From positions 11,886 through 75,885 of the forward strand of contig JAFUNF010000018.1 of NCBI GenBank assembly GCA_017473085.1: DNA of 64,000 bases. The letters are read 5' to 3'. Positions 3,844 to 41,237 of the stretch are shown here, one piece after another (the stretch's first letter is position 1; every line of letters starts with the position of its first letter). The position numbers were made by a program, and so were the translations under genes. The notes beneath the pieces are model-generated. The model was not told the origin of the DNA. It was given only the letters and a program-made list of their open reading frames with translations, and did no database searches. This DNA comes from Clostridia bacterium. Lineage in GTDB: Bacteria > Bacillota > Clostridia > Oscillospirales > CAG-272.

Positions 3844-3878
3844 AAAATGCTAAAATAACGGCAAAAGCCGATAAAAAA

Positions 3879-3992
3879 CACTTCTCTCATCCGGACTTTA
3901 ACCGTCGGTTTTGGAATTGCACCAAATCTGCCTAAGGGTTAGGCTCGCAGACTGTACTGCCGGTGGGGAGTTGCACCCCGCCCCGAAATATA
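3879..3992 (-). promoter_or_regulatory. FMN riboswitch (RFN element) aptamer
   Basis: The minus strand reads TTCGGGGCGGGGTGCAACTCCCCACCGGCAGTA...GCAGATTTGGTGCAATTCCAAAACCGACGGTTAAAGTCCGGATGAGAGAAG, matching the conserved RFN core segments. Confidence 0.85.
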
Positions 3993-4350
3993 TTAGGAAC
4001 AGTCAGATAGTGGCATAGAACGAAAAGCAGGATATATTCCCTCTTTTCTGCCTGTTCCCTTTATTTACTTGTCTATAATGTAGAGTTTTTCTATTTGTAG
4101 CATTTTAATACCACTTGCTTTTACCAAGAAAAACTCTTTTTATCTGCTTTTCTAATTGCGTTCTCTACTCTACCGTACAAAGTACGCCTACGCGTACGAG
4201 AACACAATTTCTCTACCCCTCCTGATGCCCCTAGATAGAGCTCCTTTAGGGCAATCATAACGTTTACAAAGTAAACTCATAACTCAACCCCGTTGAGCCA
4301 CACTCCCATTTTACCACTCCGTAGCTTATATGTCAATAAAAAAATGGTTG

Positions 4351-4414: not shown

Positions 4415-5425
4415 ATGAAAAAAAGAATCTGCTTAATCCACACAGGTGGAACTATTGGAATGATAAGAAGTGACAAGGGCTACTTGCCAAAGGTGGGCTA
4501 TTTGGAAACTGCCCTTTTGGGCATTAGCGACCTTAAAAATGAGAAAATGCCCGACTTCGACCTTTTTGAAATGTCCCCACTTCTCGACTCATCTGATATG
4601 GCAGTTGGGGATTGGAACAGAATAGGCGAGGAAATCGCTTCAAGATACGATTTATATGATGGCTTTGTAGTATTGCACGGCACGGACACTATGGCATATA
4701 CTGCCTCTGCCCTTTCCTTTATGCTTGAGGGACTTGACAAGCCTGTAATCTTGACAGGGTCCCAAATTCCTCTTTGCGAGGTAAGAAGCGACGGACGAGA
4801 TAACCTTATAACCTCACTTCTTATAGCCTCCGAGGGCAAATATAACGAGGTTTGCCTCTACTTCGGAGGACGACTATTGCGTGGCAATCGTGCAACTAAA
4901 ATGTCGGCAGACGGACTTTTAGCCTTTGATTCTCCTAACTGTCCAAGATTAGCCGAGGCAGGAATTAGTATAAGATACCTACCTGTGCAAAAGCCACCTA
5001 AAACCAAGGAAAGCTTTTCTCTTTGTCACTTAGAGGATGTGCCAATTGGAGTTTTAAAGGTATTCCCTGGTATTCGCTTCCCTATTTTTGAAAAGCTAAT
5101 GACCGAAAGGCTAAAGGGCATAGTGCTTGAAACCTTTGGTGCAGGAAACATTCCAGGAGAGGGCGATTCCCTTTTGCCAATAATTGAGCGTGCATTCAAT
5201 GCAGGCTCTGTAATTACAGTATGCTCACAATGTCCGCAGGGCACAGTGTCCCTTGGCACCTATAAGACAAGCTCCCCACTTAAAAATGCAGGAGCTGTAA
5301 GTGGCTTTGACATGACAACCGAGGCTTGCGTTGCCAAGCTTTATTACCTATTTAGCAAGCACTACTCAAAGGAGGAAATAAAGTCGCTAATGGAGGAAAA
5401 TCTCCGTGGCGAGCTGACGAAATAA
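4415..5425 (+). CDS. ansA: L-asparaginase, type I
   Basis: Motifs HTGGTIGM and VLHGTDTMAYTASALSF. 336 aa. Confidence 0.85.
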   Translation: MKKRICLIHTGGTIGMIRSDKGYLPKVGYLETALLGISDLKNEKMPDFDLFEMSPLLDSSDMAVGDWNRIGEEIASRYDLYDGFVVLHGTDTMAYTASALSFMLEGLDKPVILTGSQIPLCEVRSDGRDNLITSLLIASEGKYNEVCLYFGGRLLRGNRATKMSADGLLAFDSPNCPRLAEAGISIRYLPVQKPPKTKESFSLCHLEDVPIGVLKVFPGIRFPIFEKLMTERLKGIVLETFGAGNIPGEGDSLLPIIERAFNAGSVITVCSQCPQGTVSLGTYKTSSPLKNAGAVSGFDMTTEACVAKLYYLFSKHYSKEEIKSLMEENLRGELTK

Positions 5426-5434
5426 AGAGGGCTT

Positions 5435-6256
5435 ATGGCATATATTAAATACAAAAACGGCTATTATCAAGGCGACGTAGAAAACGGCAAAAGATGTGGC
5501 AATGGCAAGTTTGTTTCCAAAAACGGCAACTATTATGAGGGTCAATGGAAAAACGATATGGCAAACGGCTATGGCAAAATGGTTTTTAGTAACGGCTACT
5601 ACGAGGGCTATTGGAAGAATTCCAAAAAGCACGGCAAGGGCAAATATGCTTGGGCAGATGGCTTTTATTACGATGGCGATTGGTACGAAAACATTATGCA
5701 GGGCTACGGCAAGCACACCTACGAATGGGGCTACTATGAGGGCTATTGGAAAAACGATATATGGTTTGGCAAGGGCGTTGAGGTAATAACCTGCAGTGGT
5801 GTCACCATTGAGGGCATTTGGAATGGCGACTCAACAGCCACAGACGTTATTCGCACGCAAGACGGAATAAAGGAATATGGCACCTATGAAAATTACAGAT
5901 TCAAGCCAAGCATACCCACAAAGCGATACCAAGACGGCTACTATCAAGGCGACCTTGTAAACGATTTACCAGAGGGTAAGGGCAAATTTACCTGGTTCGA
6001 CGGCGACACCTACGTAGGTTCTTGGTCAAAGGGCGCAAGACAGGGACAAGGCAGACAAACCTACCCTTGGGGTTATTACGAGGGTCTTTGGCAAAACAAC
6101 AAGTGGCACGGCAAGGGCGTAAAATACCTAAAGGACGGCTCCTCAATAGCTGCTGTATGGTCAACCACCGAAACAGCCACCACCGCCACCCTTTTAAAAA
6201 ATCACGTCTACACTATCGGCAAGGTAGTAAATGGCGAATTTAAACCTAATAACTAA
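5435..6256 (+). CDS. MORN repeat protein
   Basis: Reiterated YxGxWxxxxxHGxG units (e.g. YYEGYWKNSKKHGKGKY). The start lies 10 nt after the ansA stop, with RBS AGAGGG. Confidence 0.75.
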   Translation: MAYIKYKNGYYQGDVENGKRCGNGKFVSKNGNYYEGQWKNDMANGYGKMVFSNGYYEGYWKNSKKHGKGKYAWADGFYYDGDWYENIMQGYGKHTYEWGYYEGYWKNDIWFGKGVEVITCSGVTIEGIWNGDSTATDVIRTQDGIKEYGTYENYRFKPSIPTKRYQDGYYQGDLVNDLPEGKGKFTWFDGDTYVGSWSKGARQGQGRQTYPWGYYEGLWQNNKWHGKGVKYLKDGSSIAAVWSTTETATTATLLKNHVYTIGKVVNGEFKPNN

Positions 6257-8596: not shown

Positions 8597-10198
8597 TTAA
8601 TACTTCCTTTCGCCAAATATTTTACTTCCAACTCTAACCAAGGTAGCGCCTGCCTCAATTGCGTATTCGTAGCTGTCGCTCATACCCATAGATAGAATTG
8701 CATTTTTATCAAAAAGCTTATCGAAAAGCTGTTTTACAATACCAAAATAGTAAAGGTATTCCTCTCTTGTCTGACATTTGGGCGCCATGGTCATAAGTCC
8801 ACGCACGCATACGTTTTTGTACTTTTTTGCATTTTCGCAAAAATCAGACACGTCCTCGGGCAAAATGCCACCCTTGGACTCCTCTCTTCCACTGTTTACC
8901 TCAATTAATACGTTTACCACCCTGCCGATTTTTTCAGCACGCTTGTTAATTTCCTCAAGCAAGGAAAGGGAGTCAACGGAGTGAATGAGGCTTACCTTGT
9001 CAATTATATATTTTACCTTGTTTTTTTGCAGAGTGCCAATAAAATGTAGCTCTGCACTTTTGTCGTATTGGCCGTACTTTTCAAGTAATTCATTTACACG
9101 ATTTTCGCCAATACAGCCACAGCCTAAGGAAATTAAGTAGTTAATGTCCTCTGCACTTTGCATTTTGGTAGCCGATAAAAGTGTAACTCGCCCCTCCTTG
9201 TCAAGGGCTTTAATTTTTGAAAGCACGCTTTCATAATTTTCTTTAATTTGCTGTTTTCTTGTATCCATTTTTCCTTGTAAAATTTCTTTTGCTACTTGTA
9301 TTGGGTCCTCTTCATCAACGTAAATTACGTTGTAGTAGTCGTGCCTTGAAAACCAAGTAAGCTGTCTTTTTGCGTAGTGCCTTGTTGATAGCTTTAGCTC
9401 CTCTACACAGGAGTCAAGGCTTGCGTATCCTTCAAAATAAGGAATAAATTCCTTGTAGCCAATAGCTCCTGAGGCAGTGTATTGCTTGTCAAGATAGCCC
9501 TTTTCAAAAAGCTCCCTTGCCTCATCTAAAAGACCGTCATTTAGCATTATGTCAACTCTTTTTTCAATGCGAGAGTAAAGCTTTTCCCTGTCCTTACAGG
9601 TTAAGAAAAAGACCGTTGCCTCATAAGGAGATTCGACCTCTTTGGAGCGTCTGTCCCACTCGCTTTTTGTAACGCCTGTGCAATGATAAATTTCAAGGGC
9701 GCGAATAACTCTTTTCAAATTGTTTTCGTGAATAGCCTGGGCACTTTCAGAGTCCACCTCTTTCAAAAGGCTGTGCACGTAACCGTTGCCCTTTTCAAGA
9801 GCTTCTTTTTCTAAAAATTGCCTGTATTCCTCGTCCTTTGCCGAGGTGGAAAAGGATGGAATTTCAATAACACTGTCAAGATAAAGCCCTGTGCCACCAC
9901 AAAAAATAGGTGTCTTGCCTCGCTTGATAACCTCGTCAATCTTTTCCTTTGCTACCTTGGCATAATCTGCACAGGAAAACTCCTCGTTGGGATTTTTTAT
10001 GTCAATCAAATGATGAGGCACTAAGGCTTGCCCCTGTTTCGTTGGCTTAGCTGTGCCAATGTCCATTGTGCGATATATCTGCATAGAATCACAGGAGATA
10101 ATCTCCCCATTCAGTAGCCTTGCTAACTCAATAGCCATAGCACTCTTACCTACTGCCGTAGGTCCAACAATCGCTATAACTCTTTGCTTTTTGTTCAT
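8597..10198 (-). CDS. miaA: in-frame fusion of tRNA dimethylallyltransferase (MiaA) and a YggS-family PLP-binding protein
   Basis: Residues from ATG 10198 (RBS AAGGAG) include the P-loop IVGPTAVGKS and CDSMQIYRTMDIGTAKP. From codon 9268 the sequence is YggS-like (ATK lysine, HFIGTLQKNKVKY). No stop codon separates the two parts. Confidence 0.8.
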   Translation of the reverse strand: MNKKQRVIAIVGPTAVGKSAMAIELARLLNGEIISCDSMQIYRTMDIGTAKPTKQGQALVPHHLIDIKNPNEEFSCADYAKVAKEKIDEVIKRGKTPIFCGGTGLYLDSVIEIPSFSTSAKDEEYRQFLEKEALEKGNGYVHSLLKEVDSESAQAIHENNLKRVIRALEIYHCTGVTKSEWDRRSKEVESPYEATVFFLTCKDREKLYSRIEKRVDIMLNDGLLDEARELFEKGYLDKQYTASGAIGYKEFIPYFEGYASLDSCVEELKLSTRHYAKRQLTWFSRHDYYNVIYVDEEDPIQVAKEILQGKMDTRKQQIKENYESVLSKIKALDKEGRVTLLSATKMQSAEDINYLISLGCGCIGENRVNELLEKYGQYDKSAELHFIGTLQKNKVKYIIDKVSLIHSVDSLSLLEEINKRAEKIGRVVNVLIEVNSGREESKGGILPEDVSDFCENAKKYKNVCVRGLMTMAPKCQTREEYLYYFGIVKQLFDKLFDKNAILSMGMSDSYEYAIEAGATLVRVGSKIFGERKY

Positions 10199-10220
10199 AG
10201 AGATTTTTCTCCTTTCTTTA

Positions 10221-10321
10221 AGCCTTCCACTTGAGGGGAAGGGGGACCGCAACCACAATGCAAACAGTATGATTAACACAACCATCAGCGGTGGATGAGG
10301 TGTAGCCTCGTCAAGAGGCGT
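10221..10321. repeat. GGGGAAGG / ACCTCATCC mosaic repeat, copy R1
   Basis: agccttccacttgaggggaagggggaccgc ... cagcggtggatgaggtgtagcctcgtcaagaggcgt. It is the inverted counterpart of 11363-11447. Confidence 0.7.
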
Positions 10322-10340
10322 ACCCGTCCTTCCTATATTT

Positions 10341-11282
10341 TTAAAATTCAACGCAGAATATTAGCTTGCTATGATTTTCTTTTTTAACGTTCTTTTCCAC
10401 GCTAACGCCTCCGCCTGCCTTTAGCTTGCTGAGAATTGCGTCAATGCTTATCGCCGTCTTTTGAGACATCGTTGCCGAGGTTGCTCCCTCAAGCTCTAAG
10501 GTTTCCGATTTTATTGCGTTCTTTTTAGAGCAACGCATTTCTATAAGATTTTTAATGTTGTCATCGTGCTTAAACCATTTAAGTGTTGGTTTTTTCGGTG
10601 TGTTGCTTCCCTCAAATTCTGCAACGATACAGCCTCGTCTATATTGAGAGGACTCGTCCTTACGATTAACCTGCACCTTTGCGCCGACTATCTTTGCTAC
10701 ACCTAAATTTCCACCAACGCTTTTCTGTTGAGAAAATTCATCTCCCTCAACGATTTCGATTGAGCATTTTTTAGCACCTAACGAGTAAGCAATATGCTTA
10801 AGCTCTGCCAATCTTTCGTCATGAGCAAGCTTAAAAAGGCAATCAATCTTTATATATCTACTTCTGTCACAGGAGTCTGCGTAATAGATTGCATTGCACT
10901 CTGCATTAGGAATAAATTTAATTCCACTAAACTCGATTGCCTCGTCATACAAATGTAATATCTGCATTTTGTCTTCTTTACCAAGCCAACCGATTGCTCC
11001 CTTGCAAACCTCTACATCCTTTCTAACCACGTCATCGACAATCTGCACCACGTATGGCAATGCAAATTCTTTGCTTTTGTAGTCCTCGGGAAATATGGGG
11101 TTGTACCTTTTGAGCTGATTCGCCCTTTGATTTTCCTTGCTTTTTTCTGAAAAGCTCTTGGCATTTTCTTGAATAGTGCTTGTTGCTTTTTTGCCAATCT
11201 CATTAGCCCTGTTAAAAAAGCCTGCTATCTTTTCGGAAAGTGCTTTCGGATTGTTGTCTTTGTTTTTTTCTTTATCGTTCAT
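10341..11282 (-). CDS. hypothetical protein (313 aa, no family recognised)
   Basis: Long ORF with a hydrophilic K/E/N-rich N-terminus and a Cys-containing globular remainder. No TM segment or signal peptide seen. Confidence 0.6.
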   Translation of the reverse strand: MNDKEKNKDNNPKALSEKIAGFFNRANEIGKKATSTIQENAKSFSEKSKENQRANQLKRYNPIFPEDYKSKEFALPYVVQIVDDVVRKDVEVCKGAIGWLGKEDKMQILHLYDEAIEFSGIKFIPNAECNAIYYADSCDRSRYIKIDCLFKLAHDERLAELKHIAYSLGAKKCSIEIVEGDEFSQQKSVGGNLGVAKIVGAKVQVNRKDESSQYRRGCIVAEFEGSNTPKKPTLKWFKHDDNIKNLIEMRCSKKNAIKSETLELEGATSATMSQKTAISIDAILSKLKAGGGVSVEKNVKKENHSKLIFCVEF

Positions 11283-11362
11283 TTTAAAATTCTCCCTTCC
11301 ATTTTCAAGATAGTCTTTGTTTTTTTCGCGAAGACGTCACGAATTATATTAGTTTTGGTGTC

Positions 11363-11447
11363 CTACACCTCATCCACCGCTTTTCGACGTTTTTACAAAG
11401 TCGCTTATTTAATTAAAGCGGTCCCCCTTCCCCTCAAGGGGAAGGCT
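11363..11447. repeat. GGGGAAGG / ACCTCATCC mosaic repeat, copy R2 (inverted relative to R1)
   Basis: ctacacctcatccaccgc ... gcggtcccccttcccctcaaggggaaggct. Overlaps the queA stop codon by 2 nt. Confidence 0.7.
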
Positions 11448-12528
11448 ATTCAATGAACATTGCATCGCCGAAGGAAAAGAAGCGATACTTAGCGCTCACC
11501 GCTTCGGCGTATGCACGCATTATGTAGTCCTTGCCACAGAGGGCAGATACTAACATAAGGAGTGTGCTTTCTGGTAGGTGGAAGTTTGTTATTAGGGCAT
11601 CTACTGCTTTGAATTTATAGCCTGGGTAGATGAAAATGCCTGTGTTTGTAGCTTGGGGGATTATTTCTCCTTCTTCTGTTGCTACGCTTTCAAGGGTACG
11701 GCAGGAGGTTGTACCTACTGCTATAATTCTGCCACCCTTCTTTTTTCTTTCGTTTATTATGTCGGCACTTTCCTTAGTTACTGTAATAAATTCGCTGTGC
11801 ATTATGTGGTCGGTAATCTTGTCTGCCTTTACAGGACGGAAGGTGCCTAAGCCCACGTGGAGCATTACAGGCACTACTGCTATACCCTTTTGCTTGATTT
11901 TTTCAAGCAATTCAGTAGTAAAATGAAGTCCTGCTGTTGGGGCTGCACTACTGCCATTTTCTCTTGCGTAAACTGTTTGATACCTTTCTTGGTCGGTAAG
12001 CTTTTCGGTAATGTATGGGGGAAGTGGCATTGTGCCAATTTGATTTAGCACCTCATAAATGCTTGAATATTTCTTTTCGTCATAGGAAAACTCAACTATT
12101 CTGTTTCCGTCCTCTACTACCTGTAAAACTGTTGCTTCAAGAATATCGTTATAGCGAATTTTACCACCAATTTTTATCTTCTTTGCAGGCTTTAAAAGGA
12201 CCTCCCATCTGTTTTGGGAGTGTTGCTTTAAAAGTAAGGTTTCAATTTTTGAGGGACCTGATGCAAATTGACCCTCATCCCTTACCTTTTCGCCATAGAT
12301 ACGGGCAGGAATAACTCTTGAATCGTTGATAACAAGAGTATCCCCCTCCTTTAGATAGTCGATTATATCGTAAAAGTGCTTATGCTCAATTACTCCGTCC
12401 CTTTTTAAAACCATAAGCCTTGAATGGTCACGAGGCTCAATAGGTGTTTGAGCAATAAGCTCAGGGGGGAGGTCGTAATAGAAGTCCTTAGTCTTAAGAT
12501 CTGTTTCAATTAGTGTATTTTTAATCAT
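11446..12528 (-). CDS. queA: S-adenosylmethionine:tRNA ribosyltransferase-isomerase
   Basis: The N-terminal [24 protein letters not shown] and overall 360-aa layout are typical of QueA. Confidence 0.9.
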
Positions 12529-16249: not shown

Positions 16250-16316
16250 ACGCCTCTTGCGAGGCTACACCTCCTCCGTCTGCTTCGCAGACACCTCCAC
16301 CCTCAAGGGGAAGGCT
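16250..16316. repeat. GGGGAAGG / ACCTCC mosaic repeat, copy R3
   Basis: gcctc-ttgc-gaggc, tacacctcctcc, gtctgc-ttc-gcagac, acctccac, cctcaaggggaaggct. Lies in the 5' leader of the LRR lipoprotein gene. Confidence 0.65.
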
Positions 16317-24116: not shown

Positions 24117-26132
24117 TTAATCATCTATACTAATTTTGTTGTCAATTGCCTGCTTAAGTCTTGCAAGCACCTGTTGAATAGTTGGCTCCTTTTCGCTTAA
24201 GGTAACCTGTGCGCCTGCTGCATCATAGCGACCGCCACCATTCATTTCCTCAAGTATGAGCTGAACGTTTACAGCTCCATTGGACCTTGCCGAAATTACA
24301 ACCTTGTTACCAATTTTAACAAGAGCAAAGCTTGCCGCAACTCCATCAAGGGTTAGCATATTGTCAGCTATCTTAGCTGCCAAAATTCTATCCTGAGAAT
24401 CCTTACCAGATTCATTTATTGCAATAGCAAAGCAATTGCGATAAATATCGAGCTTTTCAGCAAATTTTATTTCCTTCTTGTAATCAGCTATGCTTGTCTT
24501 GAAAAGATTTTGAATTCTTTCGTATTGAGCACCTCTGTCTCTAAGATACATAGCCGCAGAATAGGTCTTTGTGCCTGCACCCTTTGTAAAGTTCTTAGTA
24601 TCAAGCACAATACCCGAATAAAGCATATCTGCATCAGTAGGTGTCAAGAAATCAACAGGCACAGCCTGTTCAAGAAGCTCAGCCACAATTTCACTTGCGC
24701 TTGAGGCACTTGGCTCGATATAGTCAAGCACAGGCTTCTTTTCAAACTCAGCAGTTTTACGATGGTGGTCAATGATAATTATATCGTCAACCATTCTTGC
24801 AAGGTCACGAGATTCAAACATTGCCACATTATTTACGTCGACAATTACCAAAAGTGTATCAGTTCTCACAAGGTTAAGACCCTTGGAGGAGTCAACGAAT
24901 ACGCCCTTAAGATTGTCATAATGCTCAAGGTGCTTAAAGCATCTTTTTACATTTGAGTCCTTAAAGTCGGTTACAATATTTACTCTCTTTTTATACATCA
25001 TTGCAAGCCTTGCAATACCAACTGAGGCACCAATTGCATCAAAGTCAGGAGACTTATGTGCCATAACAAGCACATTGCCTGCCATATTAATGCGATTTAC
25101 AAGCTCGGTAGCAATAACACGAGACCTAACCTTAATTCTGTTTTGGAGAGTGTTTACAAGTCCACCATAGAAGGAAACCTTTTCGCCGATTTTAACAGCT
25201 GCTTGGTCGCCACCACGCTGAAGAGCCATATCAAGTGCCTGCTGTGCAACCTTTTCCTTTTCTCCCATAGTGCCGTCAACCAAGGCAACACCCATAGAAA
25301 GAGTAACAGGAATATTGCTCTTTCCAACCTTGATTTCTCTAACCTTATCCAGCACGTTAAATTTAGTCTCAATAAAAGCATCAAGATTTTCGCTATCGAA
25401 AATAAAGATATACTTATCCTTTTCGTACTCTCTTAAAAATCCGTTTACAGAATCGCACCAGTTACGAAGAATACTCTCGATTTTAGCAGAAATTTCACGA
25501 TACCTATCCTGCTCGAATCTTAAAAGCTCGTCAATGTTGTCGATAATAACATAAGAAACAACCTTTTCCTTGTTCTTAATGAAGGTTCTGAGCTCGATTA
25601 ATTCCGTTACATTTCTAAAGGTGAGCAATATGTTTATTTCATTTCTGTAATTTATAGTGGTTTCCTCAACAAGATATTTCTCGTTTGCAAAATCAACTAT
25701 GTCTGAATATTTTTCCTTAGGGTCCCTGTTTGCAATAAGAGTGTACTTAAAAATCTTTTGTGCGTTAAGCCCAACGACCTTGCTCTGATTCATAGTCTTA
25801 GGTACAAATTGGTTAGTCCAAAGAACACGACCATCCTGAGTGCAAATCAAGGCAGGCTCATCGTTTACGTAAATTTTATCGTAAATTATGTCCTCAATTT
25901 TTATTTGTGAGGTAGCTCCTGCCCTTTTTCCAAGAATAATACTAAGGGCTACAAGCCCTGCGAAAAGCAAGGCAAAAAGCACAATACCTAAAATCCCAAA
26001 TAAAAGGGTACTTTGTGGGAATTTGTTTATTAAAATTACCTCTGCAAGCATAATTGAAAATGCAAGAATGGGTATCAATATACGAAAGGCTATTTTTTTG
26101 AAGTCAATTTTTCTTTTGTATGGATTTTTCAT
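24117..26132 (-). CDS. gdpP: DHH/DHHA1 phosphoesterase, GdpP-type (putative c-di-AMP phosphodiesterase)
   Basis: Two N-terminal TM helices, a PAS-like and degenerate GGDEF-like middle region, then DHH (HKSPDFDAIG) and DHHA1 (GGGRYDAAGAQ) domains. 671 aa. Confidence 0.8.
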   Translation of the reverse strand: MKNPYKRKIDFKKIAFRILIPILAFSIMLAEVILINKFPQSTLLFGILGIVLFALLFAGLVALSIILGKRAGATSQIKIEDIIYDKIYVNDEPALICTQDGRVLWTNQFVPKTMNQSKVVGLNAQKIFKYTLIANRDPKEKYSDIVDFANEKYLVEETTINYRNEINILLTFRNVTELIELRTFIKNKEKVVSYVIIDNIDELLRFEQDRYREISAKIESILRNWCDSVNGFLREYEKDKYIFIFDSENLDAFIETKFNVLDKVREIKVGKSNIPVTLSMGVALVDGTMGEKEKVAQQALDMALQRGGDQAAVKIGEKVSFYGGLVNTLQNRIKVRSRVIATELVNRINMAGNVLVMAHKSPDFDAIGASVGIARLAMMYKKRVNIVTDFKDSNVKRCFKHLEHYDNLKGVFVDSSKGLNLVRTDTLLVIVDVNNVAMFESRDLARMVDDIIIIDHHRKTAEFEKKPVLDYIEPSASSASEIVAELLEQAVPVDFLTPTDADMLYSGIVLDTKNFTKGAGTKTYSAAMYLRDRGAQYERIQNLFKTSIADYKKEIKFAEKLDIYRNCFAIAINESGKDSQDRILAAKIADNMLTLDGVAASFALVKIGNKVVISARSNGAVNVQLILEEMNGGGRYDAAGAQVTLSEKEPTIQQVLARLKQAIDNKISIDD

Positions 26133-26213
26133 TTTTCCGCGACCTCCTTTTTATTTATAACTTTCATAATAGATGATGATAAATAAACAGATTTTTAAGG
26201 ACAGAACCGCGGT

Positions 26214-26320
26214 AACACCTCATCCACCGCGAGTGGTCCCCCTTTTTTTTCCGAAACAGGAACCCTTTTGTCGCTTTGCGACATTTCCCCTAACAGGGGA
26301 ATCGCCTCAAGGGTAATGCC
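26214..26320. repeat. ACCTCATCC mosaic repeat, copy R4 (with extra hairpins)
   Basis: aacacctcatccaccgcgagtggtccccctt, then gtcgc-ttt-gcgac, tcccct-aac-agggga, and cctcaagggtaatgcc. Confidence 0.5.
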
Positions 26321-26388
26321 TACTTTCATCGTAAGTATTAGTTTAACATATTTTTATAATTTTGTAAAGTAGTTTTAAATATTTGTAC

Positions 26389-36435: not shown

Positions 36436-36582
36436 AAGCCTTCCCCTTTGTTTGGAGGGCACCCTTTAGGGCGTGCCCTTTGCGAAAAAGAGTGACACCC
36501 AAATACGAGGTTGCTAACACACCCCAACCTCTTGCCCTCCCTTGTCAGGGAGGGGGGACCATCAAAGATGGTGGAAGGGTAG
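36436..36582. repeat. GGGGAAGG-type mosaic repeat, copy R5
   Basis: gaagccttcccctt..., gggcac-cctttaggg-cgtgccc, ccctccct-tgtc-agggaggg, and gggaccatcaaagatggtggaagggtag. Same orientation as R1. Confidence 0.55.
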
Positions 36583-41162: not shown

Positions 41163-41237
41163 GCTGGAGTAGCACAGTGGTAGTGCAGCTGATTCGTAAT
41201 CAGCAGGTCGTGAGTTCAAATCTCATCTTCAGCTCCA
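41163..41237 (+). tRNA. tRNA-Thr (anticodon CGT)
   Basis: Cloverleaf: acceptor GCTGGAG/CTTCAGC, anticodon stem GCTGA/TCAGC with loop TTCGTAA, T-arm GTGAG-TTCAAAT-CTCAT, encoded CCA. Confidence 0.85.

Follow-up and report, generated by a model that had tools for sequence, protein, structure and literature searches.

Inverted hairpin repeats around a conserved 313-aa gene between queA and miaA of a Clostridia genome: probable solo insertions from a dispersed family linked to DUF559 nuclease genes

When a single gene is enclosed by inverted copies of a repeat, the question arises whether repeats and gene form one mobile unit or have come together by separate events. We address it for a locus in a 64,000-nt stretch of DNA from a member of the Clostridia (Oscillospirales, CAG-272; assembly GCA_017473085.1, contig JAFUNF010000018.1, forward-strand positions 11,886 to 75,885), termed the window in what follows and numbered from its first letter. 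In this locus an open reading frame (ORF) for a 313-aa protein lies between the housekeeping genes queA and miaA, with a repeat on either side. The original prediction likened the arrangement to a cassette insertion or to a miniature inverted-repeat transposable element (MITE), with a fallback in which the repeats are ordinary members of a dispersed family and their symmetry is fortuitous. Synteny and the breadth of the family support the fallback. Most probably the two elements are solo members of a dispersed hairpin family, separately inserted beside a resident gene, and the bracket is a by-product of two insertions.

All genes around the ORF are encoded on the minus strand; read along it, queA comes first, followed by the right repeat, the ORF, the left repeat and miaA. 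The ORF and the parts of the repeats are as follows:

11363..11447, minus strand: right (queA-side) repeat, sense in the minus-strand transcript; covariance-model matches at 11418-11445 (E 3.8e-9) and 11365-11388.
11445-11426, minus strand: its hairpin 1, a perfect 8 bp with a TTGA loop, then GGGACCGC.
11417-11382, minus strand: its insert, 36 nt, extending hairpin 2.
11381-11363, minus strand: its inner part, AGCGGTGGATGAGGTGTAG; the third hairpin is missing, though present in the ortholog on contig L001.
10341..11282, minus strand: conserved 313-aa ORF of unknown function.
10221..10321, plus strand: left (miaA-side) repeat, antisense in the minus-strand transcript; covariance-model matches at 10223-10250 (E 3.5e-7) and 10271-10303.
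10223-10242, plus strand: its hairpin 1, CCTTCCAC-TTGA-GGGGAAGG, with one A.G mismatch.
10243-10250, plus strand: 5' arm of its hairpin 2, within GGGACCGC.
10251-10286, plus strand: its insert, 36 nt, unrelated to the right insert.
10287-10303, plus strand: 3' arm of its hairpin 2 with the tail, AGCGGTGGATGAGGTGT.
10303-10321, plus strand: its third hairpin, TAGCCTC-GTCAA-GAGGCGT.

The inverted arms noticed in the original prediction were recovered by a repeat search, which paired 30 nt of outer arm (10221-10250 / 11418-11447) at 97% complementarity and 19 nt of inner arm (10287-10305 / 11363-11381) at 100%. The 36-nt cores between them (10251-10286 and 11382-11417) are unrelated, as had been stated, with ∼36% identity by eye, and the 313-aa gene is indeed the only long ORF between the arms. 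Compared with expectations from shuffled sequence, GGGGAAGGGGGACCGC occurs 2 times in the window (0.14 expected), AGCGGTGGATGAGGTGTAG 3 times (0.00 expected) and the first hairpin 4 times (0.00 expected). The tails of both repeats point at the ORF; on the transcribed strand the queA-side copy is forward and the miaA-side copy inverted. The spacers that hold them measure 163 nt (queA-ORF) and 142 nt (ORF-miaA). Two nucleotides of the right repeat fall within the queA stop codon (TAG, 11446-11448), an overlap already noted in the original prediction; because queA also ends in TAG in a relative that lacks the queA-side repeat, the repeat abuts this stop but did not create it. A target-site duplication would lie just outside 10221 and 11447, but the flanks there share no direct repeat, only short inverted matches.

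Contigs encoding close and distant homologs of the ORF were read for gene context and spacers. The interval appears in the close relatives as follows:

L127 and L128 (same species), ORF identity 100%: both spacers identical to those of the window.
L001, ORF identity 79%: queA-ORF spacer with an orthologous queA-side repeat, a similar insert and the third hairpin; ORF-miaA spacer 37 nt, no repeat.
L129, ORF identity 77%: queA stop without repeat, a long-form family member nearer the ORF; ORF-miaA spacer 89 nt of unrelated sequence.
L003, ORF identity 57%: queA-ORF spacer without repeat; ORF-miaA spacer 16 nt, no repeat.
L211, ORF identity 57%: queA, M78, a second extra gene, then the ORF; ORF-miaA spacer 34 nt, no repeat.

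Gene order queA-ORF-miaA is thus found in L001, L129 and L003, and in L211 too the ORF is directly upstream of miaA. The original prediction had pointed to an empty miaA-queA site in relatives as a check on insertion; what the relatives have at the site is the ORF, with one repeat or none. Alignment places an insertion of ∼105 nt in the ORF-miaA spacer of the window relative to these relatives. The miaA-side repeat is absent from L001, L129, L003 and L211 and present in the same-species contigs, as well as on a metagenomic contig ∼88% identical in DNA. Presence of the ORF next to miaA in relatives with one repeat or none indicates that it predates both repeats here: judged by gene order and spacers, the ORF is ancestral at its place immediately before miaA, and each repeat has a history of its own. 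The queA-side copy would have been inserted before the split from the L001 lineage and would have lost its third hairpin later; the miaA-side copy would have been inserted later, or in a narrower lineage.

These comparisons bear directly on the idea that the inverted repeats are the ends of one mobile unit, a cassette or composite element that brought the 313-aa gene or is able to move it. In four other lineages, which have a single repeat or no repeat, the ORF keeps the same place by miaA, the inserts of the two repeats are unrelated and their phyletic distributions differ, and the target duplication was not found. Distant homologs of the ORF do occur in variable, island-like contexts, with Mor/HPr, Fic and helix-turn-helix (HTH)/RhuM neighbours, which would suit a mobile gene, but there they are without repeats. 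The contigs with close homologs all show the same context, and no repeat-ORF-repeat unit was found in another context among the contigs read. The MITE-like or cassette insertion of the original prediction is therefore not supported: conserved synteny of the ORF without flanking repeats is the very finding that had been named there as refuting it. Some further evidence on its side is taken up below with the DUF559 genes.

The left repeat might instead be a local inverted duplication of the right one, making the pair a single event. The conserved modules of the two are nearly identical, and the left copy has the third hairpin that is found in the L001 ortholog of the right copy. However, the 36-nt inserts are unrelated; a paralog of the left copy, insert included, lies on another contig of the same depth in the same metagenome, which indicates a lineage of its own; and L001 has the right copy without the left. 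We regard such a duplication as most improbable.

Two further sequence features were seen in this comparison. Whether or not repeats are present, every lineage compared has a native motif, CGCGAAAAA...TATCTTGAAA, immediately before the ORF; its fuller form is CGCGAAAAA..ACA.A..(C)TAT(C)TTGAAA (window 11283-11330, minus strand; L001:4950-5000; L129:2630-2681; L003:4950-5000), and from its position it may be the gene's own promoter or operator. In a different context, two ∼40-nt repeat copies (ttcgctaagtttggatgcagaagttaatttctttacc...), unrelated to the hairpin family, follow a homolog of the ORF (L005:5960-6170).

The enclosed gene had been described as an orphan of no recognisable family, and this holds for one of its two parts. 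No hit to the 313-aa ORF exceeded the cut-off in Pfam, NCBIfam, PHROGs or PADLOC, and a Pfam scan of 38 homologs, member by member, gave no assignment. It is no orphan, however: a search of 5.8 billion proteins returned at least 797 homologs at E<=1e-3, nearly all of 305-320 aa, from metagenome-assembled genomes (MAGs) of Clostridia / Oscillospiraceae. An exhaustive profile search gathered 647 clusters at 50% identity, among which recurrent fusion to known domains was absent. In an alignment of 38 members mean column identity is 61%, with many invariant residues. Of the cysteines noticed at first, C93 and C173 are invariant and C129, C148 and C251 nearly so. The suggested searches by profile and by structure gave neither family nor fold: the best E-value was 1.5 in a sequence profile search of PDB, and ∼0.4 when the AlphaFold model was compared with PDB and BFVD by Foldseek. 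The model (mean predicted local distance difference test score, pLDDT, 76; predicted template modelling score 0.66) has two alpha/beta regions, a long helix at residues 18-60 and a disordered variable loop at 183-215. Residues 1-28 are modelled with pLDDT<50, in line with the disordered N-terminus proposed from the sequence. The amphipathic character of the modelled N-terminal helix suggests association with a membrane or a condensate. The gene is probably co-transcribed with miaA, because the spacer between them is just 16-37 nt in relatives, and this tight linkage is the sole contextual hint to its function. Among the longest family members a single Pfam match appeared, in P0221 (451 aa), where residues 33-250 of the ORF family are joined to DUF3427; P0221 is probably a frameshift or an assembly chimera.

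The neighbouring genes, with Pfam assignments from gene calls on a same-species contig, are:

11446..12528, minus strand: queA (S-adenosylmethionine:tRNA ribosyltransferase-isomerase), the upstream neighbour; PF02547 on identical-context contigs.
8597..10198, minus strand: miaA fused to a YggS-like pyridoxal-phosphate (PLP) domain, 533 aa, ATG at 10198..10196; PF01715 and PF01168; the downstream neighbour.

The miaA-YggS-like (PF01168) fusion is seen in the window, L001 and L129; in L003 and L211 there are two separate adjacent genes. Gene calls for miaA differ on the same sequence, giving 584 aa in L127 (L127:3932-5686) and 533 aa in L128 (L128:1247-2848). An in-frame upstream TTG permits a 51-codon extension of miaA through the left repeat (window 10199-10351, minus strand), with a false N-terminus that reads ...TPHPPL...SPFPSSGRL...; the 584-aa call is a miscall.

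What, then, are the repeats? The family to which they belong is built of a hairpin 1 of 8-9 bp, a hairpin 2 of free sequence, a tail [G/T]GATGAGGTG and often a third hairpin. Hairpin 1 has the consensus (G)[C/G]CTTCYCC-loop-GGRGAAG[G/C] and the tail [G/T]GATGAGG[T/G]G. The canonical form of ∼47 nt reads GCCTTCCCC-TTGA-GGGGAAGG GGGACCGC-(TT or GNNA)-GCGGT GGATGAGGTGT. Subtypes swap hairpin 2 for other complementary arms (GTCAC/GTGAC, GGCAGCC/GGCTGAC, GTCCC/GGGAC) or have CTGATGAGG or CGGATGAGG ahead of the tail. In some copies, both of those beside the ORF among them, hairpin 2 is longer by tens of nucleotides, and a long form carries extra hairpins between hairpins 1 and 2. The third hairpin frequently follows the tail, in the window at 10303-10321 and 16250-16267. 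Pairing is conserved where sequence is not: hairpin 1 has two covarying pairs (C-G 52 / G-C 16 and C-G 53 / U-A 16), while 98.6% of 138 distinct hairpin-2 sequences fold into a stem of 4 or more pairs; over 20 different arm pairs with perfect complementarity occur among them, and the mean folding free energy is -11.6 kcal/mol versus -6.2 kcal/mol in shuffles.

The covariance model finds five members in the window, namely the two that flank the ORF and those at 16267-16315, 26215-26261 and 36534-36581. The latter three are, at their full extent:

16250..16315, minus strand: short-form member, E 4.7e-12; decayed hairpin 1, hairpin 2 GTCTGC-GAAG-CAGAC, tail GGAGGAGGTGT, third hairpin TAGCCTC-GCAA-GAGGCGT.
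26210..26330, minus strand: long-form member, E 2e-5; extra hairpins between hairpin 1 and GGGGGACC...GCGGTGGATGAGGTGT.
36534..36581, plus strand: diverged member, E 3.3e-5; CCCTCCC-TTGTC-AGGGAGG, GACCATC-AAA-GATGGT, tail decayed; just upstream of a gene start.

The long-form member lies upstream of a gene for a 671-aa membrane protein (26132..24117), and similar long forms occur in L129, L023, L030, L052 and L083. Ahead of the copy at 16315 stand a promoter-like TTGACA...TATAAT and an ATG, giving a tiny, probably spurious ORF.

Beyond the window the family is broad. A scan for the 16-mer GCGGTGGATGAGGTGT in one genome per species gave at least 120 loci. Among the matches listed, ∼70 are full elements, in MAGs or isolates of Clostridia, and the others are chance 16-mers within GC-rich coding DNA. 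Carriers include Oscillospiraceae, Acutalibacteraceae, Lachnospiraceae (among them Butyrivibrio fibrisolvens 16/4), Eubacterium and Mitsuokella. In the source metagenome, contig depth is ∼680 over the shared arm versus ∼24 for the genome, and other contigs there show the short form of hairpin 2. In viral contigs the repeat is rare, with 2 exact matches of a 27-mer in IMG/VR.

With respect to the genes on either side, the repeats show no preferred direction: 13 are co-oriented, 14 anti-oriented, 6 divergent and 4 convergent, and most are intergenic. This lack of bias argues against a strand-specific RNA role and for an element that works at the DNA level. It also weighs against a reading in which the repeats are not selfish DNA but RNA structures acting in cis, kept by selection at this locus as attenuators, processing sites or stabilisers that determine the relative expression of queA, ORF and miaA. 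Several observations fit such structures. Both window repeats have a stable predicted fold in either orientation; for the right copy the energy is -27.9 kcal/mol in the sense direction and, for the opposite strand, -26.3 kcal/mol (z -4.9). In each of three close relatives a family member lies upstream of the ORF with its tail towards it, and the tail is a strong Shine-Dalgarno-like sequence that serves as ribosome-binding site elsewhere. Yet the family shows no preference for one strand, neither window repeat has a T-tract or a terminator call, relatives of the same gene order lack the repeats, and no Rfam family matches them. We consider selected RNA structure unlikely here; it is in any case compatible with a selfish origin of the repeats. 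As solo insertions, the two copies would probably just add stable hairpins to the queA-ORF-miaA transcript, and could modestly alter read-through or mRNA stability.

The family was also compared with known elements. At the Rfam gathering threshold, a search of the whole window gave no match on the repeats, and at E<=10 the best sub-threshold match at the locus was Acido-Lenti-1, with 24.3 bits against a gathering score of 37 and over the first hairpin only. At the gathering threshold the window yields two Rfam matches and no more, an FMN riboswitch (3875-3994, minus strand, 110 bits) and a tRNA gene (41163-41234, plus strand). A hammerhead ribozyme, prompted by CUGAUGAG in one subtype, was rejected on inspection: the main subtype reads GGAUGAG, GAAA and a stem II/III arrangement are missing, and Rfam gave no hammerhead match. 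A Chi site, to which AGCGG and GCGGTGG bear some resemblance, was dismissed on account of copies with a CTTG loop and no AGCGG, and a riboswitch-like element of 5' untranslated regions was ruled out by the unbiased orientation relative to genes. A literature search of incomplete coverage (DUF559 with repeats, the tail motif, Vsr-like proteins with inverted repeats, REP sequences in Clostridia) found no account of the family or of its association with DUF559.

That association was first seen in loci selected by the repeat. In L107 (4254-4729) a 125-aa gene is exactly bracketed by two inverted copies with tails inward, reading ...GGATGAGGTGT aat ATG ... TAA CACCTCATCC...; its product belongs to DUF559 (PF04480, E 9e-28). 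The GAGGTG of the tail serves the bracketed DUF559 genes as Shine-Dalgarno sequence, or ribosome-binding site. All four DUF559 genes in loci selected by the repeat abut repeats (L107:4254-4729, L077:2543-2985, L010:6653-7190 and L057:5206-5940). In L077 the reading frame continues through the inverted copy and ends with a ...TSSTASGSPSPQGEG tail. Between the DUF559 gene and the inverted flanking repeat of L057 there are, in addition, three tandem ∼61-nt partial-repeat copies (ACACCTCATCCTAAGAATGCGGAGCGTTCTTTGCTGGTGGAGCCGCTTCGCGGCG; 5395-5585, minus strand). Inverted pairs of the family thus do bracket single genes elsewhere, namely DUF559 genes; the unit with the 313-aa gene was not met at another place among the contigs read.

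An unbiased sample was formed from 80 metagenomic loci (L131-L210) picked solely by DUF559 homology, in which repeats were called with a strict pattern. A repeat lies directly upstream of the gene in 23 of 72 cases, an inverted repeat directly downstream in 36 of 75, and both in 20 of 67. Repeat density in these loci is 3.51/kb within 200 bp of the gene versus 0.06/kb farther away, a ∼60-fold enrichment. In the repeat-selected loci, neighbouring repeats are arranged tail-to-tail in 20 cases, head-to-head in 6 and in the same orientation in 8; among the tail-to-tail spacers, 13 measure 14-86 nt and 3 measure 346-443 nt, the latter holding DUF559. The tail-to-tail topology that had drawn attention to the window pair is therefore typical of the family, though the pair itself arose stepwise.

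A mechanism can be proposed on this pattern. The hairpin repeats would be DNA elements, recognised or targeted as hairpins by the DUF559 nuclease, and would spread in a manner like that of REPINs (doublets of repetitive extragenic palindromic (REP) sequences) with their REP-associated tyrosine transposases (RAYTs), or in a homing-like manner. Solo copies such as the window pair would be non-autonomous relics. In the homing version, the short-spacer doublet would be the empty site and the DUF559 unit the occupied site. Whether Clostridia possess a REPIN-like system run by DUF559 we judge to be evenly balanced.

Several points weigh against this account and against two independent insertions in the window. 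No DUF559 gene is present in the 64 kb, and no occupied/empty site pair for the DUF559 unit occurs among the fetched loci; for want of such a pair we infer, rather than observe, mobility and the role of DUF559. Under random placement over ∼52 spacers, the chance of an adjacent tail-to-tail pair is 0.9% with 2 copies and 9% with 5; a local insertion preference is plausible, although not required, and the two insertions may be linked. In L086 (6510-7296) a tail-to-tail pair surrounds two small non-DUF559 ORFs (106 aa, lipoprotein-like, and 68 aa), and the 3' end of the upstream gene is directly duplicated over 33 bp (gaagagcaaatagtaaacggattttt[a/g]aaata[a/g]), with one copy on either side of this unit; the unit may be a real cargo cassette of the hairpin family.

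Some of these points speak for the cassette. The window pair has the tail-to-tail topology of the DUF559 units, its arrangement is improbable under random placement, and in L086 a pair with other content carries a flanking duplication. A small probability is kept for the cassette because L086 suggests that cargo-bearing pairs may exist, but set against the place of the ORF in relatives a unit that brought or moves the 313-aa gene is very improbable indeed. We find it highly unlikely, too, that the window pair is a functional cargo cassette, captured or in the making, of a mobile system driven by the DUF559 nuclease, whose tail-to-tail pairs move host genes. Two separate insertions beside a resident gene remain the favoured origin of the bracket.

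By itself the locus is ordinary, with two stray repeats beside a resident conserved hypothetical gene, and their chief practical effect is on annotation, through the 51-codon false extension of miaA and spurious peptides such as ...TPHPPL...SPFPSSGRL. The repeat family is of wider interest: it is very widespread in gut Clostridia, conserved in sequence and structure, organised in inverted doublets and tightly coupled to DUF559, a large family of Vsr-like nucleases without an assigned role. Mobilising hairpins or homing into them, if true, would give DUF559 a function. It would also provide a second, mechanistically different long-lived intragenomic replicator of the REPIN/RAYT type, and account for the odd short ORFs and C-terminal protein tails that number in the thousands in Firmicutes annotations.

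Among known systems, MITEs and composite transposons share with the window pair the inverted terminal sequences around a single gene and the multi-copy nature of the repeats. They differ in that here there is no target-site duplication, relatives have the enclosed gene in this place without the repeats, the ends were gained at separate times and no transposase is linked. Integron attC sites are likewise imperfect hairpins with a variable centre that flank single promoterless genes, but successive attC sites are direct whereas these repeats are inverted, and the sequences do not resemble each other. Among the flanking genes read, none was noticed to encode an integrase; the remainder of the window was not searched for one.

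Free-standing genes for Vsr-like / PD-(D/E)XK homing endonucleases, the I-Bth0305I family, are reportedly the subject of work by Taylor et al. in 2011 and Dassa et al. in 2009. The likeness is in a small nuclease gene amid a pseudo-palindrome that also exists uninterrupted, as tail-to-tail doublets, which is the look expected of occupied and empty homing sites. In contrast, the putative target here is a multi-copy repeat instead of a conserved host gene, and no occupied/empty allele pair was found at one locus.

The closest parallel is with REP and REPIN sequences and their RAYTs (Bertels & Rainey 2011, PMC3116915; PMC3337134), a REPIN being an inverted doublet with a short spacer (PMC3337134). 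In common are short, dispersed, intergenic hairpin repeats in many copies (five in 64 kb, ∼70 among the listed matches), frequent inverted doublets with a short spacer (13 tail-to-tail, 14-86 nt), a small associated enzyme gene flanked by repeats (here DUF559) and many subtypes with compensatory stem changes. The hosts differ, being Clostridia here and Proteobacteria for REP/REPIN, as does the status of mobility, which is inferred here. The unit here has two or three hairpins and a conserved single-stranded GATGAGGTG tail that doubles as a ribosome-binding site. The enzyme is a DUF559 / Vsr-like PD-(D/E)XK nuclease, whereas RAYT is an HUH-Y1 transposase related to IS200. By this analogy, the coupling of DUF559 to the hairpin repeats resembles the REPIN/RAYT pattern and would be a new association relative to it, with an enzyme of a different superfamily.

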